Assembly: GCA_030605695.1 (NCBI GenBank)
Contig: JAUWHX010000093.1
Span: forward strand, 6,681-70,680
Reading direction: 5' to 3'
Source of the DNA: a bacterium
GTDB taxonomy: Bacteria; Hydrothermota; UBA3073; JACQXS01
Length of the DNA: 64,000 nt
A program made the position numbers and the translations under genes. Below are positions 4,212-44,250 of this stretch, in pieces. Positions within the stretch are counted from its first letter, which is position 1; every line of letters begins with the position of its first letter. The notes under the pieces were generated by a model that was not told where the DNA came from, made no database searches, and was given only the letters and a program-made list of their open reading frames with translations.

Positions 4212-4239
4212 AAAAGATTTGACCAATCGACCTCCTAAA

Positions 4240-5772
4240 TCATAAATCTGGAGTTGTAAGTCTTTTAACTCTGAACTCTGAACTCTTAATTTTAAACTCT
4301 ATTACTGTCTTATGGGTGAAAGGATTAGGATAGACAACTAATTTGATTCTCTCAGATAGGTTCTTGGTTTCATTAATTGCCTGTTTCTCATATTCATATA
4401 TTAAAATGGGGTCCCACCCAAGAGTTATAGAGAACCCAATTCCTCCAGATAAAGTATCAGCCCATAAAATATTACTGTAACGGTCTGTAATCATATTTTC
4501 TGCACAAATAGAATCAAAGGAAATATCAAAAGAAAGCAAGATAAAATCTGTTTCAGCCCAAGCAATGTAAAAGGTATCGCCTTCAATATCTTGATATGCA
4601 AAACAAAATCGCATATTATCTCCTCGAGTCTCTGTAATTTCCCCTAAATGCACGGATGGAGAATCTATAAGTGTGGCAAGATTTTTATAAACCCAGTAAG
4701 CAACTCTCGGTTTATTTAATTCAGAGTCCGGTTCAGAGCAACATGCACCATCTCCGATAAGTCCACAACAATTGAAAAAAGAAGTGGAGTCATCACTGAA
4801 GTTTCGCCACTCCACCAAATTATTCCAAAAAAGTTTATCCAATCCATTAGCGAGATTCCAACAATATCTACGCACAAGAGAACTCGCTTGTTCTTCTTGA
4901 GTTTGATATGGACAATCAGCAGGTTGATAACAGTAAGTTGCATGTTCACAAGACCATATCTGAGTATTTACATAATCTAAGTCATCTAAATGCTCACGAT
5001 ACATAGGAATAGCATCCATATGCCAATTAAAAGCTTTACCCCAGTGGTGAACATCAATAGCACCAATAGGAACACCCATAACAGATAGTGTATCTAATGC
5101 ATCCATAATAAATGAGTCAGGGGAGAAGCCTCGAGTGGGAGCGATAAGTACGATTTTAGCTTCTGGGTCGGCAGACCTGGCTGCTGAATCCACAGTTGCT
5201 ACCAATAGGCAATATTCAGAAACAGTCCGTCCACTCTCATTCCAGAGAAAAACTTCATTGCCACATTGCCACCATTTCACATTAACAAAGGTATCAGCGT
5301 CAAGATACCCATCACCATCGTACCGTTCAACTGATGCAGAGACAAATTCTGCATATTCAGGCAAATAATCTACCGGATTTCGTGCACTATCTCCACCCTC
5401 GTGGAAAACCCCTAACCAATTTACAGGTTCCATACATCCAAATGGAGCAGAAATCACAGAATCTCCACCTTGGGAAGCAGACCAATCGTATCCACCACCG
5501 ATTACCGGTTCAATTAAATCCCAGATAAGTTGTGTATTGGACCGCGTCCAGTGAGCACCTAAATAAGTATAATGAGTATCTGCCCACTGAGTGTATTCAT
5601 AATAATTATTAAAGCCCATAACATCACAGAATCCCCCTTTTGGTACGAAGCCAGCGAAAATCCCAAAACGGCTTCCCTCATTGGGCAAGTGAGCAGCGGT
5701 TAATCCTTTACTAATTACCGTTATCAATACAATGATAAACGCTAATGACCCAAATATATGTTTTTTAAACAT
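4240..5772 (-). CDS. Glycoside hydrolase-like T9SS cargo (TIM-barrel type; GNE motif), currently ending before its C-terminal sorting domain
   Basis: Start moved to the Met preceded by a GAAGGGA RBS (MFKKHIFGSLAFIIVL signal peptide). The body has a WWQCGNEVF.. glycosidase-like motif. The ORF stops right after PNPFTHKTVIEFKIKSSEF, which is the first strand of a T9SS C-terminal domain. Confidence 0.55.
   Translation of the reverse strand: MFKKHIFGSLAFIIVLITVISKGLTAAHLPNEGSRFGIFAGFVPKGGFCDVMGFNNYYEYTQWADTHYTYLGAHWTRSNTQLIWDLIEPVIGGGYDWSASQGGDSVISAPFGCMEPVNWLGVFHEGGDSARNPVDYLPEYAEFVSASVERYDGDGYLDADTFVNVKWWQCGNEVFLWNESGRTVSEYCLLVATVDSAARSADPEAKIVLIAPTRGFSPDSFIMDALDTLSVMGVPIGAIDVHHWGKAFNWHMDAIPMYREHLDDLDYVNTQIWSCEHATYCYQPADCPYQTQEEQASSLVRRYCWNLANGLDKLFWNNLVEWRNFSDDSTSFFNCCGLIGDGACCSEPDSELNKPRVAYWVYKNLATLIDSPSVHLGEITETRGDNMRFCFAYQDIEGDTFYIAWAETDFILLSFDISFDSICAENMITDRYSNILWADTLSGGIGFSITLGWDPILIYEYEKQAINETKNLSERIKLVVYPNPFTHKTVIEFKIKSSEFRVKRLTTPDL
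4266..4300. repeat. (AACTCTG)3-like heptanucleotide tract at the frame break of the T9SS glycosidase
   Basis: The tract aactctg aactctg aactctt aatttta aactcta is seen directly. Both reading frames of the minus strand pass through it; see the findings. Confidence 0.8.
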
Positions 5773-5813
5773 CTTTCTTCCCTTCACTACATTAGAGGTG
5801 ATAGTTTGAAGCA

Positions 5814-6371
5814 CTACCAGGTTTGTAACTTTTTTTCTAAATTCTTAATCTTTTCTCTGAGTTCACCTATTCCATTTTCCAGATTAAGAAAAACTTTATC
5901 CGCACCTCCCAAAATTCCTGCCTCTTTATGCAAATTGTAAATGTCATCTTCAATAACTTCTATCTTGCTCTCCATTCCATTATCCCATTCTAAATATGGC
6001 TTAGGCCTTTGAGAGAAGAAATACCCTGCTATTACAAGAATTATCACTACTCCCACACCAACAAATGTTGGAGCGAAGCGGAAACCCCTGCCATAGCGGG
6101 GCAGGACGAAACTTTTGAAAATCTCAACAGATAAAGCTTTCAGTTGGAATTTCTTTCTCTTTGCTCTTTCTAATACTTCCTTTAAAATAGCAGGAGACGG
6201 TTCTTCTTCCGGTAGTTCCTTGTATAAATTCACAGTATCTTCTAATTCTTTAAATTTATGACGACAGACCTCACATCCCTTCAGATGTTTCTCAAACTCC
6301 TGAGTTTCTTGAGTCCCAAGTTCCTTATAAAAATATAACAACCCAAATTTTTCAAACTTATTACAACTCAC
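5814..6371 (-). CDS. Anti-sigma factor, zinc-finger (ZAS-like), single transmembrane helix
   Basis: HLKGCEVC(RH) motif near the N-terminus and a central hydrophobic helix. The gene overlaps the stop of the upstream ECF sigma gene (ATGA-type coupling). Confidence 0.7.
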   Translation of the reverse strand: MSCNKFEKFGLLYFYKELGTQETQEFEKHLKGCEVCRHKFKELEDTVNLYKELPEEEPSPAILKEVLERAKRKKFQLKALSVEIFKSFVLPRYGRGFRFAPTFVGVGVVIILVIAGYFFSQRPKPYLEWDNGMESKIEVIEDDIYNLHKEAGILGGADKVFLNLENGIGELREKIKNLEKKLQTW

Positions 6372-12141: not shown

Positions 12142-12160
12142 ATACAGCAAAACTTAATTT

Positions 12161-12195
12161 CTCTTGTCTCTTGTCTCTTGTCTCTTGTCTCCTGT
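12161..12195. repeat. (CTCTTGT)4 + CTCCTGT heptanucleotide tract in the leader of the PilP-like gene
   Basis: Direct reading gives ctcttgt ctcttgt ctcttgt ctcttgt ctcctgt. It lies between the ATGA-coupled ATG at 12138 and the body of the downstream ORF. Confidence 0.85.
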
Positions 12196-12952
12196 CTATG
12201 GAGCAGAAGTAACCAGAATAAAGATTAAAAAAGTAGGTGAGTGTGTAAAAGTAATTGTATCTACTGACGCATCGCAATATAAAGATACAGTGCTTCACAA
12301 TCCTCAGAGAATAGTAATAGACTTTAAAAAATCATTTTCTCGTTTGCCAAAAGAGATAACTTCTTCATACCTTCCACTCTTAAAAATCAGAACCTCTCAA
12401 TATACAATAAATCCACCTACCACAAGAGTAGTGCTTGACCTTAAGAACAAAATCACTCATTCAATCTCTCTAATTAAAGGAGGATTAGAAATTAATCTTG
12501 GCAAAAAGATTCAGCCATCCCAAAAAGAATTGCCCATAAAACCCAAAGTAGAATCAAAAAAGGAACCAAAAGTAAAACCAACCAAAAAACCAAAAGTCAA
12601 ATTAACAGAGGAAATCAAAAAAACATCTGAACTACCTTCAGGACCAGAAGCTTTCTTCTATAATCCAAGAGGAAAGCGTGACCCATTTAGACCCTATCTG
12701 GGTGCCGATGTAAAGGATACTCTCCTTGATATAGGAACTGCAGCAATTGTTGGAATAATGTGGAGCCCCAAGGAAAAATATGCATTGGCACAGGACTCTC
12801 GAAATAGAGCATATATACTTCAGGAAGGAGACCATGTAAGCGGTGGAAAGGTCCTTCATATAAAAAAGAAAGAAGTGATTTTTCTTATGCGTGTTTTTGG
12901 AGGAAGAAAAAAAGTGATTTTGAAAGTAACACCAAAAAAGGAGGAAAAGTGA
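12164..12952 (+). CDS. AMIN-domain + PilP-like protein (secretin-associated); annotated from a TTG start
   Basis: AMIN-like segment (VTRIKIKKVGECVKVIVSTDAS...PQRIVIDFKKSF..), a Lys/Pro-rich linker, and a C-terminal PilP-like beta domain (..YALAQDSRNRAYILQEGDHVSGGKVLHIKKKEVIFL..). The upstream ATG at 12138 is out of frame by the heptamer tract. Confidence 0.55.
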   Translation: MSLVSCLLSPVYGAEVTRIKIKKVGECVKVIVSTDASQYKDTVLHNPQRIVIDFKKSFSRLPKEITSSYLPLLKIRTSQYTINPPTTRVVLDLKNKITHSISLIKGGLEINLGKKIQPSQKELPIKPKVESKKEPKVKPTKKPKVKLTEEIKKTSELPSGPEAFFYNPRGKRDPFRPYLGADVKDTLLDIGTAAIVGIMWSPKEKYALAQDSRNRAYILQEGDHVSGGKVLHIKKKEVIFLMRVFGGRKKVILKVTPKKEEK

Positions 12953-17564: not shown

Positions 17565-18338
17565 ATGCAGAATTACATTATTGTTGACGAGATTGAAATT
17601 CCTGTTCCCAAATCTTCTGATTTTGGAGAATTTTTTTTCCTCGGTGGTATAAAATCTTACAAATATTTTTCAAACTATGTTGAAGGGAAAAATGTATTGG
17701 ATATTGGATGCGGTTACGGCTACGGCTCTTATTTTATGAGTTGGAAAGCTAAGAGAGTAACGGGGATTGACATCCAAAAAAAGCCAGTAGAGAGAGCTCG
17801 AAATGCTTATCAAAAAGATAATTTAGAATTCTTATTAATGGATGTGTTTAACTTGGAGCAAGAATTTTCAGGTAATTCTTTCGATGTAGTTATTGCCCGG
17901 GAGTTTATAGAACATATTAAAGAACCTTTAGAATTTCTACAAATAGCACATTATTTACTATCAGAAGAAGGAATCCTGATTTTATCAACTCCAAACCGTT
18001 TAGCAAGGTCAGTAGAAGGTAAGCCATGGAATCCTGAACATGTGAGAGAGTTCGATGAAATATCTTTAAGAGAAGTCCTTTTACAAAAATTTAATCGTGT
18101 GAAGATTATCGGGATGTCGGGGTCTGAAAAAGTAATCAAATACAATAAGATTCGTACAGGAGGAGACGTTTCTACTTCATTTAAAAAATTATGGAGATAC
18201 ACACCAGAGTTGTTAAAGAAACTGGTCAGAAAAATGATTAGCGGAAAACTTCCCAAAAATATCACGATTGATGATTTTTACTTCGAAGATAAAGTAATGC
18301 CTCAAAGCTTTTTGTTAGCAGCTTTTTGCAGAAAATGA
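17565..18338 (+). CDS. Class I SAM-dependent methyltransferase
   Basis: Motif I VLDIGCGYGYGSYFM, plus post-I acidic and motif II elements. The stop TGA overlaps the ATG at 18335 (ATGA). Confidence 0.7.
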   Translation: MQNYIIVDEIEIPVPKSSDFGEFFFLGGIKSYKYFSNYVEGKNVLDIGCGYGYGSYFMSWKAKRVTGIDIQKKPVERARNAYQKDNLEFLLMDVFNLEQEFSGNSFDVVIAREFIEHIKEPLEFLQIAHYLLSEEGILILSTPNRLARSVEGKPWNPEHVREFDEISLREVLLQKFNRVKIIGMSGSEKVIKYNKIRTGGDVSTSFKKLWRYTPELLKKLVRKMISGKLPKNITIDDFYFEDKVMPQSFLLAAFCRK

Positions 18339-18364
18339 GAGGGTCAAATAAGAATACAAAAGGT

Positions 18365-18373
18365 AAAAAAAAA
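18365..18373. repeat. Poly(A)9 homopolymer tract between the coupled ATG and the YfhO body
   Basis: Nine consecutive A counted directly (ggtAAAAAAAAAgctg). Confidence 0.9.
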
Positions 18374-18497
18374 GCTGAAAAGCTATTCAAGTCTGTCTCT
18401 AATCTCATTCCCGAAAAATACCATAAATAAAATATTTATAGCTATTCTGTTTATACTTCCCGTAATTTATTTCGCATCCCTGCTTTCCGGCTCTAAA

Positions 18498-20876
18498 ATG
18501 ATGTATGGGTCTGATTGGCTAATTGCCGGATATTCTATAAGAAAATGGATAGGAGATTGCATCAGACAATATGGTAGCGGTCCTATGTGGGACCCATCTG
18601 CATTTGGAGGAATACCATTTGGCAATCCTTATACATTTTACTTTTTGTCTTTTCTGATTTTGCCTGTTCATGTGATTTGGACCTATATGTTTGTATTCGC
18701 TACATTTTTTGCCGGCCTGGGAATATACTTATATTTGAAAGAACTAAATATCTCTTTGTATTCTTCGTTTCTTGGAGCAATTGTTTATATGGGATGCGGT
18801 TCTGTTCTCTCAATGACTTACCCGGGGCACGATGGAAAAACATTAGCAACTGCCTTCTTTCCGTTTATTCTTCTCTTCTTACATAAGGCACTTACAAAAC
18901 ACAAACTTATTTACTTCTTATTTGCCGGAGCTGTAGGAGGACTTGCCGCTGTTAATGCTCATTTCCAACTTATTTACTACGCCGGTGTAATGTGCGTGTT
19001 TTATTTGCTCTATCACCTTATATGGCAACGTAAAGAGAATGGAATAAGAAAAACCATCATACTTATAGGATATTCACTTTGTGCCCTGATCCTTGCCGGT
19101 GGTTTGCTATCAATACACTACTTCCCTATATTCGGAACTATGGGATGGGGAGCAAGAGGTGCAGGTAGGGGATATGAGTTCGCCACCTCCTGGTCCTTGC
19201 CACCCAATGAGCTTTTGGATTTACTAACACCTTACTTCTCGGGATTACAAAATAACTATTGGGGAGAAAACTATTTTAAACTTGATACTCAATACTTAGG
19301 AATATTACCTTTGTTACTTGCTTTGCTTGCAATTGCTTTCAAGAGAAGAGAAAAATATGTCCGATTCTTTATAGGACTTTGTGTAGTTACTGTGATATTT
19401 GCGATTGGTGGACATACTCCACTTTATCGTATTCCATATTGGGTACTTCCAGGCTTAAAAAAACTCAGATGTCCTACAATGATTTTTTATCTCACAAGCT
19501 TTGGCATCGCAGTTCTTTCGGCATTTGGAGTCCAAACACTGACAAACAGAAGCCAGAAGCCAGAAGCCAGAAGCCAGAATATAAGAAATATTAGTATCTT
19601 ATTGGGAATAATATTTGGTATAGTTGTAATATTTGCTGTTATTTGTTCGGTTGGGAAGGAATCTATACTCTCCTCGTTGAAAACACGCTGGAGCCCAATT
19701 TTACTTGGTAAGTACGGTCCTCAACTCACTCAACAAAAATTACAGAACCTTTCTGAAAATTATCCTAATTTTCTTGGCGGATTGGGCAAAGCTATACTTT
19801 TAATAGCCATAAATTCTTTCTTGATTTTACTTTTAGCTATGAAACGACTAAAATTGAGAGTTTGGATTTTAATAGCTATACCAATACTTATATTTGACCA
19901 GTGGAGTATTGAGAAGAAATTTCTAAAAACCGTCTCACATCCCAAGCAATATTATGCTCCTGATGAAATCGTAAGTTTTTTGGGAAACCCGTCCCGAACC
20001 GTGACGGGTCGGGATGACCGAGAACTCTACCGCGTATTCCCACTTAATTATGAGCATTCTCAGGATGGATACCTTTCACTTTATAATATTCAAAGTTTAG
20101 GTGGATATGTTTCAAATCCTGGTGATAGATACCAGAAACTTATTGGCGCCGGTGAAAGTGTTATGTTCACTCCTTTAAATTTAATACGGTATAGGAATAT
20201 GCTTAACATCTTGAATGCCAAATATGTCATCTCTATGTGGGTTCCGGATGACCTATCAAAATATCCACCTAATACTCAACAGGTAATAAAAAGTTTCAAA
20301 GATGGTTTTTTAAGAAAATGGGGAACAAGCTGGGAAGAAGCACATAAAGGCTTTAAACTTGTTTATAGAAGCAATCGTGGGTATGGAATATATGAAAATG
20401 AAACTACTTTACCAAGAGTATGGTTGGTCCATAACTTCAAAGTCTTGTCTCGTGAGGAAGTTCTTGAGGAATTAAAAAACCCTACTTTTCACCCTGATAC
20501 TATAGTGCTTCTTGAGGAAGACCCCGAATTCCAAACCCCGAACCCTGAACCCCGAACCCCGAACCCCGAGAAAGTTGTAATCAATGAGTATTCGCCCAAC
20601 AAAATAATATGCACTGCCACTCTTGAATCGCCAGGTTTTCTAATATTCTCAGATAACTGGCATCCAGATTGGAAAGTTTGGGTTGACAAGAAAAAAGAAA
20701 AAGTTTACATTGCTGATTACACTTTGAGAGCAGTTCAGTTGGATAAAGGAGAGCACAGCGTGGAATTTAAGTATGATTCCTTGCATTTTAAGTTAGGAGC
20801 AATCGTGTTTTTCCTTTCATTCTTATTCTTTCTCGGTACAATTGGGTTCTGGTTTAAATTTTATAGAAGAAGATGA
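18498..20876 (+). CDS. yfhO: YfhO-family polytopic membrane glycosyltransferase; the true 5' end is probably at 18335, see findings
   Basis: Many transmembrane helices and a large C-terminal extracytoplasmic domain, as in YfhO-type glycopolymer glycosyltransferases. The frame is open back to the upstream stop and encodes a further TM helix (KIFIAILFILPVIYFASLL) with no ATG/GTG/TTG in that stretch. Confidence 0.65.
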   Translation: MMYGSDWLIAGYSIRKWIGDCIRQYGSGPMWDPSAFGGIPFGNPYTFYFLSFLILPVHVIWTYMFVFATFFAGLGIYLYLKELNISLYSSFLGAIVYMGCGSVLSMTYPGHDGKTLATAFFPFILLFLHKALTKHKLIYFLFAGAVGGLAAVNAHFQLIYYAGVMCVFYLLYHLIWQRKENGIRKTIILIGYSLCALILAGGLLSIHYFPIFGTMGWGARGAGRGYEFATSWSLPPNELLDLLTPYFSGLQNNYWGENYFKLDTQYLGILPLLLALLAIAFKRREKYVRFFIGLCVVTVIFAIGGHTPLYRIPYWVLPGLKKLRCPTMIFYLTSFGIAVLSAFGVQTLTNRSQKPEARSQNIRNISILLGIIFGIVVIFAVICSVGKESILSSLKTRWSPILLGKYGPQLTQQKLQNLSENYPNFLGGLGKAILLIAINSFLILLLAMKRLKLRVWILIAIPILIFDQWSIEKKFLKTVSHPKQYYAPDEIVSFLGNPSRTVTGRDDRELYRVFPLNYEHSQDGYLSLYNIQSLGGYVSNPGDRYQKLIGAGESVMFTPLNLIRYRNMLNILNAKYVISMWVPDDLSKYPPNTQQVIKSFKDGFLRKWGTSWEEAHKGFKLVYRSNRGYGIYENETTLPRVWLVHNFKVLSREEVLEELKNPTFHPDTIVLLEEDPEFQTPNPEPRTPNPEKVVINEYSPNKIICTATLESPGFLIFSDNWHPDWKVWVDKKKEKVYIADYTLRAVQLDKGEHSVEFKYDSLHFKLGAIVFFLSFLFFLGTIGFWFKFYRRR
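19547..19579. repeat. (CAGAAGC)4 heptanucleotide tract, in-frame in yfhO
   Basis: Direct reading gives cagaagc x4 + cagaa. It encodes RSQKPEARSQKPEARSQN in a predicted loop. Confidence 0.85.
20522..20570. repeat. (CCCCGAA)-type heptanucleotide tract of 7 units, in-frame in yfhO
   Basis: Units ccccgaa ttccaaa ccccgaa ccctgaa ccccgaa ccccgaa ccccgag, encoding DPEFQTPNPEPRTPNPEK. Confidence 0.85.
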
Positions 20877-21589: not shown

Positions 21590-22265
21590 TGTAATAATAG
21601 TAGCTGCAGGTGAAGGCAAGAGAATGCAAGACAAGATTCCTAAGCCATATATTAAGTTGAAAGGAAAACCAATTATAGCTCTGACTTTAAAAGTATTTAG
21701 TGAAATTCAAGAGATAGAAAATATAATAATTGTTACTCTTCCCGATTGGATTAAATATTGTGAGTCCGAAGTTATAGAGAAATTTGGATTTAAAAAGGTT
21801 AAGGCAATTATAAAAGGTGGTGCTAAAAGGCAAGATTCAGTGAAAATTGGACTTGAGGCTTTATCCTCTACCCTAAACCCTATACCCGATACCCTTTTAA
21901 TTCATGATGCTGTAAGGCCATTTATTACAGAAGATTTTATAACTCATTTAATCAAGATGTGTGATAAATACGGAGCTGTGGTTCCTGGCATCCCCGCAAC
22001 TGATACGATTAAAGAAATAGATAACGGTTTTGTGCATCGCACTCTCCAAAGAAATAATGTCTATGAGATTCAAACTCCTCAGGTTTTCAAGCATGAGATT
22101 ATTAAGGAAGCATATGAAAAGGCTTATTCTTGTGGTTTTTATGGCACAGACGATGCTTCACTTGTTGAAAGATTGGGAACCCAAGTAAAGGTCGTGCCGG
22201 GACTCCAAAGAAACATAAAAATTACTACCAGGGAAGACCTCTTATATGCAGAAAATTTACTTTAA
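21582..22265 (+). CDS. ispD: 2-C-methyl-D-erythritol 4-phosphate cytidylyltransferase
   Basis: MADVIIVAAGEGKRM... N-terminus and conserved IspD motifs. Start moved to the ATG at 21582, which overlaps the upstream stop. Confidence 0.8.
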   Translation: MADVIIVAAGEGKRMQDKIPKPYIKLKGKPIIALTLKVFSEIQEIENIIIVTLPDWIKYCESEVIEKFGFKKVKAIIKGGAKRQDSVKIGLEALSSTLNPIPDTLLIHDAVRPFITEDFITHLIKMCDKYGAVVPGIPATDTIKEIDNGFVHRTLQRNNVYEIQTPQVFKHEIIKEAYEKAYSCGFYGTDDASLVERLGTQVKVVPGLQRNIKITTREDLLYAENLL

Positions 22266-25931: not shown

Positions 25932-26966
25932 TTATACTCCACGCTCAAGAACACTCTGATATTTCTCAAACTTCTCAAGGACCCTTGCGGCGCCACGAAT
26001 TACACATTCTCTTGGACTTTCTGCAGTTTCTACTTTGAGCCCTGTTTCCTTAGATATCAGTGAATCTAACCCCTGAAGAAGAGCTCCCCCACCTGCCAAT
26101 GTTATCCCTTTATCTATAATATCCGATGACAGCTCAGGTGGAGTTTTCTCAAGAGCACTTTTCACTGCTGTAATTATACTGTTCACAGTACCTTTTAATG
26201 CATCTCTTATCTCTTTAGAATTTATTTTAATAGACTTTGGGAGTCCACCTACAGAATCCCGACCTTTTACTTCCATTGATTTCTCACTTTTTAAAACTCC
26301 TGCACTCCCTATTTGTATCTTTATTTCCTCACCTGTAGTTTCTCCTATGAGTAATTTATAGCTCTTTTTTAAATACTCAACAATAGCAAGGTTCATTTCA
26401 TCTCCTGCTATCCGCACACTCGTATTACATACAATATCAGAAAGAGCTATTACAGCAATCTCTGTCGTTCCCCCTCCTATATCTATCACCATATTCCCTG
26501 ATGGTGATTCAATTGGTAACCCAACTCCTATCGCAGCCGCCATTGGCTCCGCAATAAGCCATACATCACTTGCTCCAGAATGAGAGACAGAATCTCTTAC
26601 TGCACGACGCTCTACATCTGTAATCCCACTTGGAACTGCTACAACTACCCTTGGCCTTGCAAATAACCCTCTCGCCTGAACCTTTTTAATAAAATACTTC
26701 AAAAGCTCCTCAGTTACCTCAAAATCCCCAATAACTCCATCTTTTATGGGTCTTATAGCTTTTATCGCCTCAGGAGTCCTTCCTAACATCTTTTTTGCTT
26801 CTTCTCCTACTGCTATAGTTTCTTTTGTCTTCGTATTAACAGAAACCACAGTGGGCTCATTTAAAACTATTCCTTTCCCCTCCACATATATTAGCGTAGT
26901 AGCAGTGCCAAGGTCAATTCCTATATTATGTCCAACAAACCTGCTGAAGATATTCTTAAATGTCAT
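25932..26966 (-). CDS. mreB: Rod shape-determining protein MreB
   Basis: Actin-fold motifs (IGIDLGTATTLIYV.., ..MVIDIGGGTTEIAVI.., LAGGGALLQGLD). Confidence 0.9.
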   Translation of the reverse strand: MTFKNIFSRFVGHNIGIDLGTATTLIYVEGKGIVLNEPTVVSVNTKTKETIAVGEEAKKMLGRTPEAIKAIRPIKDGVIGDFEVTEELLKYFIKKVQARGLFARPRVVVAVPSGITDVERRAVRDSVSHSGASDVWLIAEPMAAAIGVGLPIESPSGNMVIDIGGGTTEIAVIALSDIVCNTSVRIAGDEMNLAIVEYLKKSYKLLIGETTGEEIKIQIGSAGVLKSEKSMEVKGRDSVGGLPKSIKINSKEIRDALKGTVNSIITAVKSALEKTPPELSSDIIDKGITLAGGGALLQGLDSLISKETGLKVETAESPRECVIRGAARVLEKFEKYQSVLERGV

Positions 26967-27135
26967 CTCTCAAACCCCTGAAATTAGGATATCATAAAAA
27001 ATAAATATGTCAATAAATTTCTAACACAAAATTTATAAAACCTACCCGATAGTTTTACATAGCAACTATCCTTATCTGCTTTATCCCTCACATTTGTAAC
27101 TTGACACTCCTAAAAAAGTCAATATAATCTGTAAA

Positions 27136-28110
27136 ATGTTTAAAGAATCCTCTGAACAAGTAAAAATACTTGGTCTCTACGATATAGACCCTGCGGAATG
27201 GAACTCTCTTCTTAATTCAAAGAATGCATTCGTCTTTAATACTCTGGAATGGACTAATGTCTGGAACCTGTCATACGAAGATGCTCATCCACTTTTCCTT
27301 GTGACAAAAATTAATGGATTCCAATCTGCAATCCCATTTATAGAAATCAAAAAATTTGGATTTAAAAGCTATTACTCTATGCCTTACAGCGATTACGGTG
27401 CAATATTATTAAACTCTCAGCTCTCCTCATCCTGCAATCTGCAATCTGCATTTGCCAAACTCGCACACGGAAATTGGGGTATGCTCTCATTCTCTGATTT
27501 CCACGAGGAAGCTAAAGGGTTAGAATCACTTGGGTTCAAAAAACTTGATTCTGTAACCCATATATTGTCCCTTGCAAAAGATTCTCAAGCTCTATGGAAC
27601 CAATCTATAAGTTCAACAAGAAGGCAGTTTGTCCGTCAGTCGCAACAAAAAGATGTAAAAATCTCCCTTGTTGAAAGTGAATCCCAGGTCCGAGAATGCT
27701 ATAAAATGCTTGAGGACACTGCCAAAAGACATAATAAAAAAGCTTCGAGATTCCCACTAAAGTTCTATCTCAATATCTTCAACATAATGGGAAAATTCCT
27801 AAGATGGACTATTGCAATCCAAGATAACCAGCCCATTGCTAATATAATAAATTTTATATACAAAGATACTATCACTTATTGGGACGGTGGCTCTTATACC
27901 CACGCATTACAATACCGCCCAAACGATGCACTTATATGGGACGCAATAAAATGGGGTTGCAATAATAACTATAAATATTATGACCTTCGTGGCTCCCCTA
28001 CTCCAGGGCTTGCTAAATTTAAACAAGAATGGGGTGCCAAAGAAAAACATTATCCGTTCTATTACAAAAAGTCCCCATTATTTAAAACCCTTAAAACACT
28101 TACCCGATGA
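27136..28110 (+). CDS. FemAB-like / GNAT-fold acyl (aminoacyl)-transferase
   Basis: C-terminal region ...YWDGGSYTHALQYRPNDALIWDAIKWGCNNNYKYYDLRGSP...AKFKQEWGAKE... resembles the FemAB/BioF2-like family. Confidence 0.45.
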   Translation: MFKESSEQVKILGLYDIDPAEWNSLLNSKNAFVFNTLEWTNVWNLSYEDAHPLFLVTKINGFQSAIPFIEIKKFGFKSYYSMPYSDYGAILLNSQLSSSCNLQSAFAKLAHGNWGMLSFSDFHEEAKGLESLGFKKLDSVTHILSLAKDSQALWNQSISSTRRQFVRQSQQKDVKISLVESESQVRECYKMLEDTAKRHNKKASRFPLKFYLNIFNIMGKFLRWTIAIQDNQPIANIINFIYKDTITYWDGGSYTHALQYRPNDALIWDAIKWGCNNNYKYYDLRGSPTPGLAKFKQEWGAKEKHYPFYYKKSPLFKTLKTLTR

Positions 28111-29243
28111 AAGTCAAAGTCAAAGTTCTTCATTTCACTTATTGCTTCTTTGAGTCCATAGGAACTTTTTTGTATAATACTCTACGGAATCACCAAAAGT
28201 TTAAACCAGTCATAACAGCCCTCACCTTAAAACACCTCCTCCATTCTCCCAAGAGCAATATCTACAAGCTCGGAATATCTCTCCCAAGACCGGGAATGAG
28301 TTTCTTCTTACCCTACAGACTCGCAATGCTCTTATCATTAAGAAAGATTATTCTTCAAACGAAACCATCTGTCATTCACGCACATTATGGACCCTGGGGT
28401 TGCTTCATACTCCCTTTAAGGAAAATAACTTCCATTCCTCTCGTGGTAACATTCTACGGATATGACATCTCTTTGCCGAGTCGCAGAAAAGTATGGATAA
28501 AAAGGTATCGAAAGTTATTTAAACTCGCAGACCTCATCCTTGCAGAAGGACCATTTATGAAAGAATCTCTTATTCGCCTTGGTTGTCCACCACAAAAAAT
28601 TGCTATCCAAAAAATAGGCATAGACCTCTCACAACTCACAACTCAAGACTCACAACTCACAACCCCTAACATCACATTTGCTGGACACTTTGCTCCAAAA
28701 AAGGGAATTATGGATGCACTAAAATCCATAAATCTCTTAAGAAAGGAATTTACTGACTTCACTTTCACTCTTATAGGAGATGGACCCCTCTTGCCACAGG
28801 TAAAAGAGTTTATCTCCCATAATAAAATGAACTCATATACAAAACTTTTGGGGTCTCTGCCTTACGATGAATATATTGAGGAACTGAGAAAAGCCACTAT
28901 ATTCTTGCATCCATCACATACAGCACAGGATGGAGAAACAGAAGGAGGCGCTCCCACTACTATACTTGAAGCTCAGGCACTAAATATACCTGTCGTCTCA
29001 ACCACTCATGCAGATATACCAAACATAACTCTTCCACAAAAGAGTGCTCTCCTCTCCAATGAACACGATATAGAGGGACTTTATAATAGCTTAAAATTCT
29101 TGATAAGGAATCCCGAAAAAGCTCAGGAAATGGGAAAGCTTGGCAGAGATTATGTCTTTAAGAATCACCGCATAGAACTCACTATGCACGAACTTGAAGA
29201 AAAATACATCCGTTTATATTTGCATTGTCATGCTGAACCCTGA
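28107..29243 (+). CDS. Family 4 (GT-B) glycosyltransferase
   Basis: The EGGAPTTILEAQALNIPVVST motif is the canonical GT4 E-x7-E region. Overlaps the upstream stop by 4 nt. Confidence 0.75.
   Translation: MKVKVKVLHFTYCFFESIGTFLYNTLRNHQKFKPVITALTLKHLLHSPKSNIYKLGISLPRPGMSFFLPYRLAMLLSLRKIILQTKPSVIHAHYGPWGCFILPLRKITSIPLVVTFYGYDISLPSRRKVWIKRYRKLFKLADLILAEGPFMKESLIRLGCPPQKIAIQKIGIDLSQLTTQDSQLTTPNITFAGHFAPKKGIMDALKSINLLRKEFTDFTFTLIGDGPLLPQVKEFISHNKMNSYTKLLGSLPYDEYIEELRKATIFLHPSHTAQDGETEGGAPTTILEAQALNIPVVSTTHADIPNITLPQKSALLSNEHDIEGLYNSLKFLIRNPEKAQEMGKLGRDYVFKNHRIELTMHELEEKYIRLYLHCHAEP
28628..28669. repeat. (CTCACAA)-type heptanucleotide tract, in-frame in the GT4 gene
   Basis: Units ctcacaa ctcacaa ctcaaga ctcacaa ctcacaa cccctaa, encoding LSQLTTQDSQLTTPN between the two Rossmann halves. 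Confidence 0.85.
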
Positions 29244-29325
29244 AAGTGTCATTCTGAACTTGGTTCAGAATCCCTTCAGGACAGGCACGTTTCAGCATCT
29301 CTTTCATAATTATGTCCTGTTTCCT

Positions 29326-29430
29326 CTCGTGAAATACCTGTTTGTTCCCGACAAATACTTATTTACTCCCGATGAATACTTATTCATTCCCGACAAATAC
29401 CTCTCCGTTCCCGACAGAGAACTCTCTGAT
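29326..29430. repeat. Five phased 21-bp direct repeats (core CCCGACAAATAC) in a convergent intergenic region
   Basis: Units start at 29326, 29347, 29368, 29389 and 29410, exactly 21 bp apart: ctcgtgaaatac.., cccgacaaatac.., cccgatgaatac.., cccgacaaatac.., cccgacagagaac... Confidence 0.85.
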
Positions 29431-29446
29431 TCGTTCATAGAACTTC

Positions 29447-30463
29447 CTATCTCATTAAAATTATTTTCTTTGTTGCCTTGAAATTACTTGCTTCCACTCT
29501 CACAAAGTAGATACCTTTACTAAGCTTCTCAAGATTTATCTCAACATCCTGCTTCGTTGTTAAAACATGCTTTACTAACTTGCCTGATAGGTCATAAATC
29601 TTGATACTTGCTCCCTTGCTCGCTTGTTGAGGCAAAGCCGAAATCCCGATTTGTCGGGGATAGCTCGATAGCTTGATAACTGCCTTCCCAAACGATGGGT
29701 TCGGATATATCTCTAAACTAATGCCTATTGCCTTATGCCTATTGCCTGTCTCTTCCTCTACTCCTGTCTCAGAAACCCTTATAAGATAGACATCTTTCTT
29801 GCCAGCACCAAAAGAATATGTCCCTCCTGCAATTATAAAGCCACCACTTGCATACTCCTGAACAGAATAGCCACAATCCCAGGCAGTTCCTCCATAAGTT
29901 CTTGTCCACAGAGTATCACCATTTGCATTTGTCCTTATAAGATAGACATCATCAGAGCCAGCACCAAAAGACTTTGTATATCCTGCGATTATAAAGCCCC
30001 CGCCTGCACACTCCTGAACAGAAGAGCCACCATCAGAGTTAGTTCCGCCATAAGTTTTAGTCCACAGAGTATCTCCATCTGCGTTCGTTCTTATAAGATA
30101 GACATCATCAGAGCCAGCACCAAAAGACTCTGTATATCCTGCGATTATAAAACCCCTATCCGTACACTCTTGAACAGAATTGCCATCATCCCAGTAAGTT
30201 CCGCCATAAGTTTTAGTCCATAGAGTATCACCATTTGGCTCTATCCTTATAAGATAGACATCACTTCTGCTAGCACCAAAAGAAAATGTACATCCTGCAA
30301 TTATAAAGCCACTACCTGCACACTTCTGAACAGAACAGCCATGATCGTACTCGGTTCCGCCATAAGTTCTTGTCCACAGGGTATCAGGACCATCGGCAAT
30401 TGCAGGTGCGGACACAATAAATTGTGTCCCTACAAAAGCCCATACTCTCAAAAACTTACGCAT
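29447..30463 (-). CDS. T9SS cargo with about-45-aa tandem repeats ([11 protein letters not shown]...FIIAGYT.SFGAG.DDVYLIRT, x5)
   Basis: Signal peptide, five near-identical repeats, and an intact C-terminal sorting domain. Compared with its paralog at 63517, the sorting domain carries an extra YPRQIGISALPQQ encoded by the palindrome tcccgatttgtcggga (29649-29664). Confidence 0.7.
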   Translation of the reverse strand: MRKFLRVWAFVGTQFIVSAPAIADGPDTLWTRTYGGTEYDHGCSVQKCAGSGFIIAGCTFSFGASRSDVYLIRIEPNGDTLWTKTYGGTYWDDGNSVQECTDRGFIIAGYTESFGAGSDDVYLIRTNADGDTLWTKTYGGTNSDGGSSVQECAGGGFIIAGYTKSFGAGSDDVYLIRTNANGDTLWTRTYGGTAWDCGYSVQEYASGGFIIAGGTYSFGAGKKDVYLIRVSETGVEEETGNRHKAIGISLEIYPNPSFGKAVIKLSSYPRQIGISALPQQASKGASIKIYDLSGKLVKHVLTTKQDVEINLEKLSKGIYFVRVEASNFKATKKIILMR

Positions 30464-30636
30464 CTCTCTTCCTTTTTCACAAAAATACAGTCTCTCTCAA
30501 AGAAAACTCCCAAGTAGCGAGAGGGTTTATCCCCCGCCTTTCGTTGCCGAGGATGAACCTCGGGACGCTACCTTGCAATTCGTGCATTATTTCTTTGTTA
30601 AATCTTTATATACGCCAAACGGATAATATGGAATCA

Positions 30637-32112
30637 TTATCTCATTAAAACTATTTTCTTTGTCGCCTTGAAATCACCTACATCCACTCTCACAAAGTAA
30701 ATACCTTTAGTAAGTTCCTCAAGATTTATTTCAACATCGTGATTCATTGTTAAAATAGTCTTTACTAACTTGCCTGATATATCGTAAATCGTTAATCGCA
30801 AATCGTTAATCGTGTAATCGTCCCGATTTTCGTTTAACGAATAACGAATAACGATTTTTTTGCTACATGGATTCGGAAAAACTCTTAACTCTAAACTCTT
30901 AACTTTTAACTCTTCACTCTCCTCCACATTTGTATTCTCACATTTATGACGCTTGTAATATATCTCCGAGTTGCTAGCCCCATGCCGCCAATCCGTCCAA
31001 GCTATATGAACATCATAATCATAATCGCAATTCCAACATGCTACAGAAACGCGTTCAGACTTGCCGACAGAATTGGTTAACATCTCATCGGTTCCCCAAG
31101 TCTCACCATCATTGACTGACCGATTGTAATATATCTCATAGTCGCTATCCCGCTCATCTACCCAAACTACATGAACTGCTGAATCACAAACTGCTATAGA
31201 AGGATCCCCTGAGTAAGCAGAGTTAGTAGTTAATCTCCTATTATCTATCCCCCAAGTCTCTCCATTATCAACTGACCGATTGTAATATATTTCATAGTTG
31301 CTATCACGCCAATCATACCAAACTATATGGACTATTGAATCACAAACTGCTATAGAAGAACACCCTGAGTAAGCAGAGTTATCGGTTAGTCTCTTATTAT
31401 CTATCCCCCAAGTCTCTCCATTATCAACTGACCGATTGTAATATATCTCATAGTTGCCAGCACGCTCATCTATCCAAACTATATGGACTATTGAATCACA
31501 AACTGCTACCGAAGGATACCCTGCGGGAGCAGGGTCATTAGTTAGGCTCTTATCTATCCCCCAAGTTTCTCCATTATCAACTGACCGATTGTAATATATA
31601 TCAGCGTCGCCATCACGAAAATCATACCAAACTATATGAACTATTGAATCACAAACTGCTACCGAAGGACAAGATGAGTCAGCAGGGTCATCAGTTATCC
31701 TCTCATCTATCCCCCAAGTCCCACCATTATCAACTGACCGATTGTAATATATCTCCGTGTTGCCATCACGGTTATCATACCAAACTATATGAACCATCGA
31801 ATCACAAACTGCTACCGAAGGAAAATGAGAATCCCCTGTAGTTAGCCGTGTATCCGGGTCAAAGCTACTCCCAGAATTGATAGACCTTATATAATAAAGC
31901 TCGCCTGGATTATCACCCAATCTGTGCTCCCAAAAAATATGCACCATAGTATCCCGTACTGCTATTGCCCAAGCATTATTGTAGCCATCATAGTCAACAT
32001 GGCTTGGATAAACAGTTAATCTTTTATCTGGATTCTCCCACTGCCCATACAAATCCACAGGATTCTGCGAACTGCAAGCTCCCAACACCATCAAAAATCC
32101 CCATTTCTTCAT
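30637..32112 (-). CDS. BNR/Asp-box repeat T9SS cargo protein
   Basis: Repeated SVDNGETWG / SVNDGETWG Asp-box motifs (x6); C-terminal domain ..LRVFPNPCSKKIVIRYSL...[14 protein letters not shown]...GIYFVRVDVGDFKATKKIVLMR. Confidence 0.75.
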   Translation of the reverse strand: MKKWGFLMVLGACSSQNPVDLYGQWENPDKRLTVYPSHVDYDGYNNAWAIAVRDTMVHIFWEHRLGDNPGELYYIRSINSGSSFDPDTRLTTGDSHFPSVAVCDSMVHIVWYDNRDGNTEIYYNRSVDNGGTWGIDERITDDPADSSCPSVAVCDSIVHIVWYDFRDGDADIYYNRSVDNGETWGIDKSLTNDPAPAGYPSVAVCDSIVHIVWIDERAGNYEIYYNRSVDNGETWGIDNKRLTDNSAYSGCSSIAVCDSIVHIVWYDWRDSNYEIYYNRSVDNGETWGIDNRRLTTNSAYSGDPSIAVCDSAVHVVWVDERDSDYEIYYNRSVNDGETWGTDEMLTNSVGKSERVSVACWNCDYDYDVHIAWTDWRHGASNSEIYYKRHKCENTNVEESEELKVKSLELRVFPNPCSKKIVIRYSLNENRDDYTINDLRLTIYDISGKLVKTILTMNHDVEINLEELTKGIYFVRVDVGDFKATKKIVLMR

Positions 32113-32249
32113 CTTACACCTCCCTTTTCACAAATATACATACAGCTGTTCCCAAGAAAGTCAAGAAAAGACTTCTATCTTTGTGAACTTTGTGCCCTTT
32201 GTGGTCAAAATATCCCTATCTGTGAAAATCTGCGGTTCCAGTTTAATCT

Positions 32250-33269
32250 TTACCTTCGCAATCTCCTTAACCCTATCCCATAGACCACGCCTATTATCTG
32301 GAAATCGTCCTCAGAGGTAACTACTATTGGAGAATATTTGGAATTCTTGGACTTTAGAATTACATTATCCTTTCGTCTTGTAAATTCCTTTGTCATCGCT
32401 TCATTATTTAACCTACATACTACTATATCTCCTTTTTCTGCCTTTGTCTGCGCCTCAACTATCGCATAATCACCTGACAACAGTTCAGGACTCATAGAAT
32501 CCCCCTCAACTTGCACCCCAAATACTTCCTTGTCTTTTTTTATTAAAGCACCCTCAGGAACCCATACCCAGTCAATTACCTCATCCCCTCTTATCTCTAT
32601 TGGATGTCCGGCTGGAATACTTGCAATCACAGGAACTTTTGGCTTGAGTCTAATGAGGTCTAAAACCACTACCTCTTCTTTATCAGGAACTCTCCTTATC
32701 TTAAATTCACTCTCAATGAACTTCTCCAAAGCTTCAAGTTTCCGCTCAAGTTTCTTTATTCTCTCTTCCTCTGGAACTGCATCCTCTGGAATCCCACGCT
32801 TCCCAAAGACAAGAAAGTCAAAACTCACTCCAGCAATCTCAGCAAATTTAGATAAAATCTCCTGCTGAGGCTGAAGATCTCCTCTCTCATATCCTAAAAC
32901 CTGTGCTTCCTGAACTCCAAGTTTCTTGGCAAGCTCTCCACGCGATAACTTTAAGCCACTCTCTCTCAAATATTCAATCCTCTCCCCTATTGCCTTCAAA
33001 TCCATATGCTCAAATACTTTTCTTGAATAATTGCCGGGTGCTCTGCCTTTTCCATCCAATACCCAATCAATTGAACACTCGCCAAGCTCAGCTATCCTCA
33101 CTAATAACTTTCCCTTCGGAACTCTCCCTCTATCCCACATTGATACAGTATCTTGCGATACTCCAAGTAACCCACCAAACTTCTCACCAGTCAATCCCAA
33201 TATCCTTTTCCTTATGTAAGTTAACCTTCCTGAACACTTTGACAAATCTATTTCGTCATACTTTCCCAT
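32250..33269 (-). CDS. LexA-like repressor: two XRE-type HTH domains + coiled-coil linker + S24 (LexA/UmuD) self-cleaving peptidase domain
   Basis: HTH1 (LTGEKFGGLLGVSQDTVSMWDRG), HTH2 (LSRGELAKKLGVQEAQVLGYERG), and a C-terminal GDSMSPELLSGDYAIVE...K catalytic Ser/Lys dyad. Confidence 0.7.
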   Translation of the reverse strand: MGKYDEIDLSKCSGRLTYIRKRILGLTGEKFGGLLGVSQDTVSMWDRGRVPKGKLLVRIAELGECSIDWVLDGKGRAPGNYSRKVFEHMDLKAIGERIEYLRESGLKLSRGELAKKLGVQEAQVLGYERGDLQPQQEILSKFAEIAGVSFDFLVFGKRGIPEDAVPEEERIKKLERKLEALEKFIESEFKIRRVPDKEEVVVLDLIRLKPKVPVIASIPAGHPIEIRGDEVIDWVWVPEGALIKKDKEVFGVQVEGDSMSPELLSGDYAIVEAQTKAEKGDIVVCRLNNEAMTKEFTRRKDNVILKSKNSKYSPIVVTSEDDFQIIGVVYGIGLRRLRR

Positions 33270-33298
33270 CTTCCCTCCTTTTGAATTTTACGATTTTT

Positions 33299-33347
33299 AT
33301 AGTTTTTTTTACTTGATAAACTATATATTATACGAGGAAGTTGTCAA
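33299..33347 (-). promoter_or_regulatory. Sigma-70-like promoter for the LexA-like gene, with an overlapping palindromic candidate operator ATAGTTT-N12-AAACTAT
   Basis: On the minus strand: TTGACA-16-TATAGT. The perfect inverted repeat at 33299-33324 spans the -10/+1 region, and AGGAGGG lies before the ATG. Confidence 0.4.
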
Positions 33348-33513
33348 GGAAAAACTGATTTTTTAACACGAACCTCAAGATCCGTATGGACAAGATACGA
33401 ACTCGTTTATATACTTTTGAAAAGAATTTTGTTCGCGTGATGTTCGCAAAAGTTCGTGTCGCAGACTCTGTGAGATAAGTTCGTATTTATAAATTATAAG
33501 AGGCATTTGGTAT

Positions 33514-34968
33514 TTACAATTCTATTCTTTCTTTCTCAATCCGTGCTATCTCTTCTGGATTTATTCGTGTCGGATAATCTCCATTAAAACAGGCAGTGCA
33601 ATATGATGACGACTGCCGACCACTAATTCCCGACTGCGGGCTTGAAGGTTTAATTGCCCTCAACATCCCTTCAATTGATTGATACACAAGTTCATCTGCT
33701 CCTATTTCATTTTGTATTTCATTAACACGCTTGTTTCTTGCCATAAATTCTTGCCTCGTTTGCATATCAATTCCATAAAAACAGGGATGCTTTAAAGGTG
33801 CACTTGAACTCGCAAAATATATTGCTCTCGCCCCTGCTTTCCTTACAAGTGATATTATTGCACGAGAAGTAGAACCCCTTACAATTGAATCGTCCACAAG
33901 CAATACGCGCTTACCCTCTATCTCACACCTCACAGGATTAAGTTTATGTTGCACTATTTTTCTGCTATCACGCGGCATTATAAATGTCCGACCTATATAT
34001 CTATTTTTTATTAAACCTTCCCGATACGGAACTCCCAATGCCTGTGCCAGAGACAATGCTGTAGTCCTCGCTGTATCTGGAACGGGCATTACAACATCGG
34101 GCTTTATCCCACGAGCTTTTACTCTTCTTGCAAGTTCCTCTCCAAGTCTAAATCTCGCTTCATACACCCAAACTCCGTCTATTATTGAATCAGGGCGAGC
34201 AAAATAAATATACTCAAATATACAATGCCTCGGAGCTAATTTCTTAATCACTTTTGAGCTCACTTCTCTATTAAGATCTATAAATACTGCTTCTCCCGGC
34301 TCTACATCTCTCATCTCCCGATACCCAAGAGTATCTAATGCTACTGATTCACTCGCAAAACAAAAGTTCTTTCCTTTCCAACCAAACTTTAATGGCTTTA
34401 TACCATGAGGGTCCCTGAATGCCAAAAGCCCCTGCCCAGCTATAAAACACACACACGAATAACTCCCATTCACCATTTCCATTACTCTTTTAACTGCCTC
34501 AAATATCGTATTAACCCCATTTTGAAGCAACGAGGACTGTCTTGCTCTCCCAAGTTCAGACGCAAGTAAATTTAGAATTACCTCTACATCATTACTCGTA
34601 TTTATATGTCTCCGACGCTCACGAACCAACAATTCTTTTAGCTCCTGATAGTTTATTACATTTCCGTTATGTGCTATTGCTATTCCAAATGGCGAATTTG
34701 TATAAAAGGGCTGCGCATCTTCAGGGTCACCTCCACCAATCGTAGGATACCTCACATGACCAATTCCTATCTTGCCTTTTAATATATTCCAATCTTTGGA
34801 TGTGAAAAAACTTTGGACTGTTCCCTTACCCTTTCTTAAATGAAATCTCCTATCTTTGTAAGTTATTATTCCGGCTGTATCTTGCCCCCGATGCTGTAAG
34901 CTAATCAAACCAAGCCATAGCTCCGTAGCTACCTCTTTATTCCCATATATTCCAATTACTCCACACAT
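33514..34968 (-). CDS. purF: Amidophosphoribosyltransferase
   Basis: MCGVIGIYG N-terminal nucleophile, a PRPP-binding motif (VLLVDDSIVRGST), and C-terminal Cys ligands for an Fe-S cluster. Confidence 0.85.
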   Translation of the reverse strand: MCGVIGIYGNKEVATELWLGLISLQHRGQDTAGIITYKDRRFHLRKGKGTVQSFFTSKDWNILKGKIGIGHVRYPTIGGGDPEDAQPFYTNSPFGIAIAHNGNVINYQELKELLVRERRRHINTSNDVEVILNLLASELGRARQSSLLQNGVNTIFEAVKRVMEMVNGSYSCVCFIAGQGLLAFRDPHGIKPLKFGWKGKNFCFASESVALDTLGYREMRDVEPGEAVFIDLNREVSSKVIKKLAPRHCIFEYIYFARPDSIIDGVWVYEARFRLGEELARRVKARGIKPDVVMPVPDTARTTALSLAQALGVPYREGLIKNRYIGRTFIMPRDSRKIVQHKLNPVRCEIEGKRVLLVDDSIVRGSTSRAIISLVRKAGARAIYFASSSAPLKHPCFYGIDMQTRQEFMARNKRVNEIQNEIGADELVYQSIEGMLRAIKPSSPQSGISGRQSSSYCTACFNGDYPTRINPEEIARIEKERIEL

Positions 34969-37279: not shown

Positions 37280-37290
37280 CCTTTTTGAAT

Positions 37291-44224: not shown

Positions 44225-44250
44225 AAAAACACTAATCAGTGGCTTTCACT

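Follow-up and report, generated by a model that had tools for sequence, protein, structure and literature searches.

Why should tandem repeats with a unit of seven base pairs, a length that is no multiple of three, lie within protein-coding genes, and how do their host genes remain readable? The question is raised by a 64-kb stretch of a bacterial contig (JAUWHX010000093.1, positions 6,681 to 70,680, assembly GCA_030605695.1; the whole of this stretch is called the window here), in which such arrays have been found in the genes for YfhO, a GT4 glycosyltransferase, Lnt, an AsnB-like protein and a set of proteins secreted by the type IX secretion system (T9SS). The comparisons described below make it reasonably probable that these arrays are born and remodelled in place by slippage with a 7-bp bias, and that selection keeps those variants that preserve the frame, are free of stop codons and lie in tolerant loops.

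The first point to be settled is whether the seven-base period is real. Perfect periodic runs of at least 17 bp were counted in the window for periods 2-15, arrays were called with Tandem Repeats Finder (TRF), and 200 second-order Markov simulations of the window served as null. Twenty exact period-7 runs were counted, as compared with 0-1 for each other period (2-6 and 8-15) and with a Markov expectation of 0.145 on average and 2 at most. An earlier reading, made from the sequence only, had placed tract density far above chance, and this holds for period 7 specifically. The tracts it had named in yfhO and in the GT4, lnt and asnB-like genes were all recovered by TRF at or near their proposed places, among 28 period-7 arrays in total. 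These arrays have 2.5-7 units (mostly 3-5) and are of mixed quality, several of them being perfect (100% matches) and many imperfect (70-88% matches). After repair of the gene models, coding sequence makes up 92.9% of the window and contains every one of the 28 arrays. This placement equals random expectation (P = 0.125); therefore, the arrays fall in genes because the genome is about 93% coding. The reading frame is kept through 26 of the 28. Freedom from stop codons is a weakly discriminating property, since 57% of composition-weighted heptamers possess it. About 25 distinct consensus units occur among the 28 arrays and form several loose families. In fact, when rotation and either strand are allowed, 40 pairs of units differ by no more than one mismatch (9.8 expected, maximum 25 in 300 simulations), in agreement with the family likeness that had been proposed for them.

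Hosts backed by Pfam matches are YfhO, IspD, a FemAB/GNAT-like protein, the GT4 glycosyltransferase, Lnt (LNT_N and CN_hydrolase) and the AsnB-like protein. The sequence-only reading had presented essential enzymes as the hosts. These are real enzyme genes, but the picture was skewed, since 19 of the 28 arrays, which it had overlooked, occupy the last ~110 residues of paralogous secreted proteins, that is, the linker and the Por_Secre_tail (T9SS C-terminal sorting) domain. The nearest homologues of the window proteins come from metagenome-assembled genomes (MAGs), and those further removed bear the label candidate division WOR-3 or Candidatus Stahlbacteria.

Different units at homologous sites

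The clearest view of how the arrays change is given by orthologues. The yfhO gene (18335-20876, plus strand; Pfam YfhO; probable true start ATG 18335) carries two of them. At site 1, (CAGAAGC)4.7 (19547-19579, plus strand; TRF, 100% matches) encodes NRSQKPEARSQN, residues 350-361 of a 792-residue open reading frame (ORF), in a loop that is variable in the alignment and lies downstream of a transmembrane helix. At site 2, the imperfect (ACCCCGA)7.0 (20521-20569, plus strand; TRF, 80% matches) encodes PEFQTPNPEPRTPNPE in a linker, also variable in the alignment, after the conserved VILEE motif. The translations given earlier agree for the named tracts, with one exception: the 33 bp of the first yfhO array encode NRSQKPEARSQN, which falls short of the full RSQKPEARSQKPEA and thus of two full heptads. 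At both tracts the loop lengths of YfhO resemble those of close relatives; therefore, the arrays occupy these loops and do not simply lengthen them. The units that fill them differ from one orthologue to another. Site 1 shows five types, namely CAGAAGC in the window, ACCGAAA in L085 and L087, AGACCAA in L084, AAAAGTC in L090, L091 and L097, and GCAAAAC with AAAATGA in L095. Site 2 shows four: ACCCCGA in the window, CAATTAC in L085 and L087, AATCTGG in L084, and CGAAATC in L095. A single master unit is ruled out, as orthologous sites carry unrelated units. The idea that the tracts are pure insertions was also rejected for YfhO and the AsnB-like protein, in which loop length is about that of relatives and the array replaces sequence.

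Another example is the GT4 glycosyltransferase, in which (CTCACAA)5.1 (28628-28663, plus strand; TRF) encodes SQLTTQDSQLTT exactly between the two Rossmann domains (Pfam matches end at 175 and start at 185). A relative at 93% identity, L081, has a contig colinear with window positions 26821-38783, and its GT4 gene is ~97% identical. Its linker, KLNPNPQPLTP, is built from (AACCCCT)-type units in place of SQLTTQDSQLTT, at a net difference of 3 bp. The heptamer of the left flank is expanded in the window and that of the right flank in L081. Together with the different units at homologous sites, this expansion of flanking heptamers points to an origin of the arrays in place.

In Lnt, the array lies close to the active site. 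On the minus strand, TRF called (TCGTGAG)4.1 at 36178-36206, which on the coding strand is (ACTCACG)4.1 followed by 1-2 degenerate units (extended to 36213). It encodes QLTTHDSRLT (residues 358-368) in a loop 6 residues before the catalytic Cys374. Compared with E. coli Lnt, the tract segment is a ~10-residue insertion directly before the strand that bears this cysteine. The AlphaFold model of the protein has a mean predicted local distance difference test (pLDDT) of 87 and a predicted template modelling score of 0.88, and its sole stretch with pLDDT below 50, residues 356-363, overlaps the start of the 358-368 segment in the same inter-strand loop. Relatives at 93% and 70% identity have the segment NSQLTTHDSRLT, those at 73% and 61% have a shortened form, and in the orthologue alignment it is absent from relatives at or below about 65% identity. 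In L081 the array has the same length, and TTGTGAG and TTATGAG alternate there as against four identical TCGTGAG units in the window. This is concerted evolution under a length constraint. A second array of the gene, (AAAAGTT)4.9 on the coding strand (36666-36699, minus strand), encodes KKLKVKSEKLKV in the linker between the membrane and nitrilase domains and is 97% identical in L081. Outside the arrays, the Lnt gene of L081 has GC-rich inserts of +33 bp and +18 bp relative to the window, near 36415 and 36230, one of which encodes VGVKRKSRSGG.

The remaining enzyme hosts follow the same pattern. In ispD, an (ACCCTAW-like)4.4 array (21865-21895, plus strand) encodes TLNPIPDTL, a 5-residue loop insert with respect to the solved structures PDB 5ddt and 5mrn, which directly precedes the conserved (L/I)HD strand. 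The FemAB/GNAT-like gene contains (CTGCAAT)2.7 (27432-27450, plus strand), which encodes SCNLQSA and is identical in L081. In the asnB-like gene, an imperfect (AATCGTT)5.3 (60481-60517, plus strand; TRF) encodes residues 9-22, ESLIVNPASLIVKE. The AsnB-like protein itself begins with MPGIAGI (60453-60480), so that proline replaces the catalytic Cys2 of class II glutamine amidotransferases; judged from this residue, use of glutamine by the protein is unlikely.

The window and L081 agree at 86% of positions within the tracts and at 93% elsewhere, and four arrays (27432, 30835, 30880 and 36666) are 97-100% identical in the two. All indels within coding sequences that are intact in both are multiples of 3. 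Pfam boundaries, alignments, solved structures and the Lnt model likewise bear out the proposal that the tracts appear as 7-residue-period peptides in loops and linkers, where they are read in all three phases. The inserts are specific to the lineage, as the missing Lnt segment of relatives at or below ~65% identity and the IspD insert illustrate, and no distant orthologue was found to carry the same peptides without repetitive DNA, the result that would have spoken for ancient conserved sequence.

Sorting domains and genes out of frame

A similar diversity of units exists among paralogues within the window. When the DNA of eight sorting-domain paralogues is aligned, arrays lie at homologous positions and are built from units that differ from paralogue to paralogue. 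Immediately 5' of the V-x-PNP codons, for example, the units are GAGTTAA, GGGTTCA, AGGCATA, AGATTGG and AACTCTC, and the final unit of each array blends into the codons of the conserved V-x-PNP strand. In one paralogue, AACTCTC is the reverse complement of the unit type of the others (GAGAGTT) at the same site. Two paralogues carry period-8 arrays (ATCAAGCT) at a second site. The alignment argues against the insertion of a pre-formed element and favours duplication of a local proto-repeat, with occasional strand switching. In agreement with this, the arrays do not have the features of mobile miniature elements (MITE/REP-like), as they grade into the flanking codons and their units differ between orthologous and paralogous sites. 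The segments encoded in the sorting domains include the linker and also strand-like stretches such as ELRV, IVIRYSL and RFTIHD. The possibility that C-terminal ORF extensions through the arrays are spurious was discarded, since Por_Secre_tail profiles span them.

Individual cargo genes carry from one to four of these arrays. On the minus strand, a period-7/14 array (29718-29747) precedes the sorting domain of the gene at 29447-30463 as a linker, in which L081 has AACTCTN units instead; three arrays, (AGAGTTA)5.9, (TCGTTAT)2.9 encoding IVIRYSL, and (TAACGAT)5.7, lie in the sorting domain of the gene at 30637-32112 (30781-30920); and in the sorting-domain ORF 63517-63849, (AGAGATT)4.9 (63746-63779) directly precedes the PNP motif. 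On the plus strand, the sorting domain of the gene at 46824-47963 contains (AGGGTTY)6, (CAGATGC)3.6 and (ACATCTA)2.9 (47659-47796). An LVIVD-repeat gene (48958-51075) has four arrays, with units AACTCTC, TCAGTTT, AACTCTT and TTCACGA, in its linker and sorting domain (50766-50960). The gene for a papain-like protease (51077-52297) has four in its sorting domain (51995-52183; AGAGTTT, CGTTATT, CGATTCA and CGAMTCA), and a second LVIVD-repeat gene (52395-54644) has two near the C-terminus (54410-54531; AACTCCC and AACCCCT). Period-8 arrays are also found within sorting-domain coding sequence (4178-4209, 29607-29678 and 63670-63714), which means that the 7-bp rule is not absolute; (AATTAACY)4 encodes PINQLTNQLINC, and a second type of period-8 array is (CTATCAAG)n.

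It had been pointed out that a slip of one unit would break the frame of the host gene, and exactly such breaks exist in two genes for surface proteins. One encodes a T9SS cargo protein (4059-5814, minus strand) and loses its frame at (AGAGTTC)2.9 (4267-4286, minus strand). When one unit is removed (or two are added), the gene encodes 582 residues and its C-terminal sorting domain is whole; the Por_Secre_tail match at residues 494-578 crosses the junction and scores 33.4 bits with respect to a cut-off of 27. The other is the gene for an AMIN-domain pilus protein, between pilO and the secretin gene, in which (TCTCTTG)5.4 (12160-12197, plus strand) occupies the codons of the signal peptide. The natural start codon of this gene, ATG 12138, shares an ATGA with the stop of pilO, and from it the body at 12164-12952 cannot be read in frame. 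Addition of one unit (or removal of two) restores MNTAKLNFSCLLSLVSCLLSPVYGAEV..., an N-terminus that resembles the full signal peptides of the relatives P0242-P0244 (MNTIKTKLFFFLLSIFCLNPLYAGRV...). A database protein, P0241, is a truncated call of the AMIN gene that is 100% identical to the window product and starts inside the array; an exact-protein look-up of P0241 returned no match. The sole second assembly of the species that was found, Logan contig L086, ends inside the same array. The two frame-broken genes may be population variants, fixed pseudogenes or assembly errors.

Distribution and comparison with known heptanucleotide systems

The period-7 excess extends beyond the window in a discontinuous manner. 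Two surveys were made, one of 80 Lnt loci from species-representative genomes and one of 80 metagenomic YfhO loci. In the former, the loci of Omnitrophota and of a few other high-GC MAGs have 2-7 period-7 runs per 10 kb, and zero such runs were found in the 960 kb of the remaining Lnt loci. The Omnitrophota arrays occupy two loops of Lnt, and one of these is the loop before the catalytic cysteine that also carries an array in the window; the units are unrelated. This Lnt loop has been colonised independently in that phylum. In the YfhO survey, period-7 runs amount to 0.88 per 10 kb at loci with at least 50% identity, 0.23 at 38-49% and 0.07 at 37% or less, and in the last and most distant class period 7 is no longer special. 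The window, with 3.1 runs per 10 kb, is the extreme of its clade, and a relative at 73-76% identity (L001, L083) has nearly none. Taken together, the densities at Lnt and YfhO loci indicate that the bias is patchy and lineage-specific. In one Omnitrophota-type Lnt gene (L010, 8929-8945) there is an (AAGACTC)2.4 tract, the unit of E. coli neuO, which is probably a coincidence.

That heptanucleotide repeats are in excess in prokaryotes was recognised by 2007, and the accounts that relay the original work treat the phenomenon as intergenic (Mrazek et al., 2007, via PMC4679880 and PMC4692102). According to the same accounts, the heptanucleotide is the most abundant class of long simple sequence repeats (LSSRs) in many prokaryotes, and slippage related to the polymerase footprint is the sole published idea for the 7-nt preference (Mrazek et al., 2007, via PMC4679880 and PMC4692102). 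Coding regions are said there to favour only units whose length is a multiple of three (Mrazek et al., 2007, via PMC4679880). The arrays of the window belong with these repeats, since head-to-tail units within the 5-11-nt range of the class occur beyond the expectation from composition and the excess is confined to period 7, in the relatives likewise. As in the published cases, 7-nt tandem units are over-represented with respect to other lengths, the phylogeny is patchy and slippage is proposed. In contrast to published heptanucleotide LSSRs, which are mainly intergenic, all 28 arrays here are coding and draw on diverse units, and the lineages concerned are a WOR-3-like one and Omnitrophota. 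A literature search for heptanucleotide or heptamer repeats in connection with WOR-3 or Omnitrophota found no report linking them in the library searched.

Better-known families built on a particular heptamer offer a second comparison. The cyanobacterial STRR, the TAACTGA repeats of Beggiatoaceae and the GGGAATC repeats of Xanthomonas have also proliferated genome-wide with a 7-nt period, vary in length and sequence between close relatives, and are occasionally arranged as inverted copies. However, these families use one or few specific units and lie mostly beside genes (upstream of starts or overlapping stops), whereas in the window it is the period that is conserved and not the unit. In fact, the window arrays are neither limited to a few characteristic units nor mainly intergenic, and tandem copies of TAACTGA, CCCCAGT, TTGGTCA, CAACAGT, GGGAATC and GGGGAYT were sought in the window and none was found. 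Closest in genic position is the (AAGACTC) repeat in neuO of the E. coli K1 prophage CUS-3, also an in-gene 7-nt repeat, translated in three phases, whose frame determines whether a full-length product is made. Slippage in neuO gives on and off states, under a divisible-by-3 rule (PMC13001214). In the window, too, copy number sets the frame (7 mod 3 = 1, and a one-unit change restores two genes). However, the neuO repeat forms one locus only, of 3-53 copies at the 5' end of the gene, and its phase variation is demonstrated, whereas dozens of short arrays are concerned here, at many positions in many genes, and they are known from assembled sequence alone.

Origin and persistence of the arrays

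The mechanism that best accommodates these results would be strand slippage that strongly favours, in particular lineages, a 7-bp register and that would make the arrays and continually remodel them in place. Purifying selection would retain those whose net length change is a multiple of 3, those without a stop codon on the sense strand in any of the three phases, and those placed where an insert is tolerated (a loop, a linker, a signal peptide or a cleavable T9SS sorting domain). Read in three phases, the surviving arrays would give a mostly hydrophilic peptide with a 7-residue period, and they would expand, contract and become homogenised while total length is held. Occasional slips of one unit would put genes out of frame, so that phase variation of surface proteins would be incidental. 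The in-gene arrays are thus best explained as the coding-sequence face of the known, and unexplained, prokaryotic heptanucleotide excess.

Several points weigh against this slippage mechanism. None of the data here accounts for the preference for 7 bp. The arrays, their place in genes, their lineage specificity, their turnover and the frame breaks are observed directly; slippage as the process, and as a current activity, is inferred from comparison between genomes. Errors of assembly are a conceivable source of the two frame breaks. The presence of 19 of the 28 arrays in T9SS cargo C-termini may reflect selection for variability, beyond mere tolerance. Units of the type ACTCAC(A/G) recur in GT4, Lnt and one cargo gene, and ATCGTTA units in the asnB-like and cargo genes; such recurrence across unrelated genes beyond chance could mean a sequence preference or non-local seeding. 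Finally, simple slippage does not predict the inverted pairs of arrays that form periodically bulged hairpins, two of them coding and three intergenic (z-scores -3.5 to -7.2). In coding sequence, the mutually inverted (TCGTTAT)2.9 and (TAACGAT)5.7 fold into a hairpin (30775-30860; z-score -4.6), and (CAGATGC)3.6 and (ACATCTA)2.9 are partly complementary (47735-47800; fold z-score -3.5). The intergenic hairpins consist of two inverted arrays of 8-9-bp units (40795-40880, 42236-42306 and 44158-44225; z-scores -4.9, -7.2 and -3.7), with 7-bp helices split by single mismatches, and may be terminators or a separate repeat class. Structure in RNA holds for these inverted pairs, and as a general property of the arrays it is ruled out by the solitary arrays of yfhO and lnt, which are unstructured (RNA/DNA fold z about +0.4 to +0.5; +0.5 at yfhO site 1).

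The frame breaks lend themselves to another explanation, in which the arrays are selected contingency loci, kept because one-unit slips switch surface or envelope genes on and off, as in neuO of E. coli K1, for which the divisible-by-3 rule is documented (PMC13001214). The T9SS cargo and AMIN genes, with surface-exposed products, are indeed off by exactly one unit, the AMIN array (12160-12197) lies at the 5' end of its gene, and most hosts are related to the envelope (YfhO, GT4, FemAB-like, Lnt, AsnB-like and T9SS cargo). However, the window is rich in envelope genes anyway and coding placement is as random in a 93% coding window. Moreover, the arrays are short (3-5 units in most cases), the majority occupy mid-gene or 3' positions, several are unchanged between the window and the 93% relative, and ispD and lnt, in which an off state should be costly, are also hit, so that selected switching is unlikely as a general explanation. 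The earlier suggestion that the arrays are frozen relics of a past expansion burst or restrained from slipping, together with the variant that they are ancient conserved sequence, could draw on the many imperfect arrays and on the four that are 97-100% identical in the 93% relative. It is nevertheless very improbable, and the orthologue comparisons largely refute it: YfhO and GT4 units differ between relatives (in GT4, within a gene that is 97% identical), the same loops carry different units in orthologues and paralogues, Lnt is homogenised within the array and differently in each genome, several arrays have 100% matches, two genes are one unit off, and distant orthologues are without the peptides.

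The inverted pairs, in turn, suggest a dedicated or templated repeat writer (template switching, fold-back synthesis or a lineage-specific enzyme) that would make 7-8-bp arrays, sometimes as inverted pairs and possibly with preferred units. Besides the bulged hairpins of the coding and the intergenic period-8 arrays, this would agree with the (GGCTCAA)n...(GCCTTCA)n pairs at Omnitrophota loci, the paralogue with a reverse-complement unit at the same site, the recurrence of units beyond chance and the patchy distribution across phyla. Against it, no candidate enzyme was identified, the solitary arrays of yfhO and lnt have neither partner nor structure, and the diversity of units across orthologues speaks against a sequence-specific writer; such a writer is therefore quite unlikely. 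A wider version, held to be rather unlikely, would have a synthesis or repair activity specific to a WOR-3 subclade, and independently to Omnitrophota, write 7-bp (and 8-bp) arrays, sometimes as inverted pairs, which would be exploited to diversify T9SS cargo linkers and sorting domains and to switch surface proteins on and off. If this were true, the array-writing activity would be a bacterial hypermutation system built on non-triplet microsatellites. An assembly or sequencing artefact, for which one might invoke the end of L086 inside the 12160-12197 array as a sign that arrays can perturb de Bruijn assemblers, can practically be dismissed, as arrays occupy the same gene positions in independent NCBI, ENA, JGI and Logan assemblies and 26 of 28 frames are kept.

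The slippage mechanism preferred here is of biological significance because, in this lineage, non-triplet microsatellites would be born, remodelled and tolerated in coding sequence, including a loop of Lnt that lies six residues away from its catalytic cysteine, and because the same permissive loops are colonised independently in another phylum. The system offers a natural experiment in which the making and reshaping of protein loops by microsatellite slippage can be followed while the frame has to be kept. By phylogenetic profiling, biased lineages could be contrasted with unbiased ones in order to trace the polymerase or repair factor behind the bias. On the practical side, the arrays flag a recurrent mis-annotation, namely truncated or split gene calls.

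Frame problems of another kind, and length changes of other periods, are also present in the window. In yfhO, ATG 18335 overlaps the stop (ATGA) of the upstream methyltransferase gene, and the N-terminus reads MRGSNKNTKGKKK...; according to the three-frame translation, an A9 run (18365-18373) shifts this start out of frame with the body of the gene. The extra continuous N-terminal helix of YfhO is kept in all relatives aligned, and the A9 frameshift could be a homopolymer error, a real frameshift, or a site of transcriptional or ribosomal slippage. A feature separate from the arrays consists of mini-insertions of 18-48 bp (19988-20016, 29265-29312 and 29635-29664), GC-rich and in part palindromic, in which the window and L081 differ. 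Several of them are in frame inside genes; the one at 19988-20016, in yfhO, encodes PSRTVTGRD, a segment that the 76% relative does not have. Tandem repeats of 156 bp (52 residues) in T9SS cargo genes (29777-30386, 31094-31822 and 57334-57861) correspond to beta-propeller blades, and their copy number differs from that of L081 by indels of 156 bp and 315 bp. Finally, a purF-like amidophosphoribosyltransferase gene (33514-34968) is intact in the window, and L081, without 739 bp and 163 bp of it (33649-34944), retains only a 151-residue glutamine amidotransferase (GATase) fragment.

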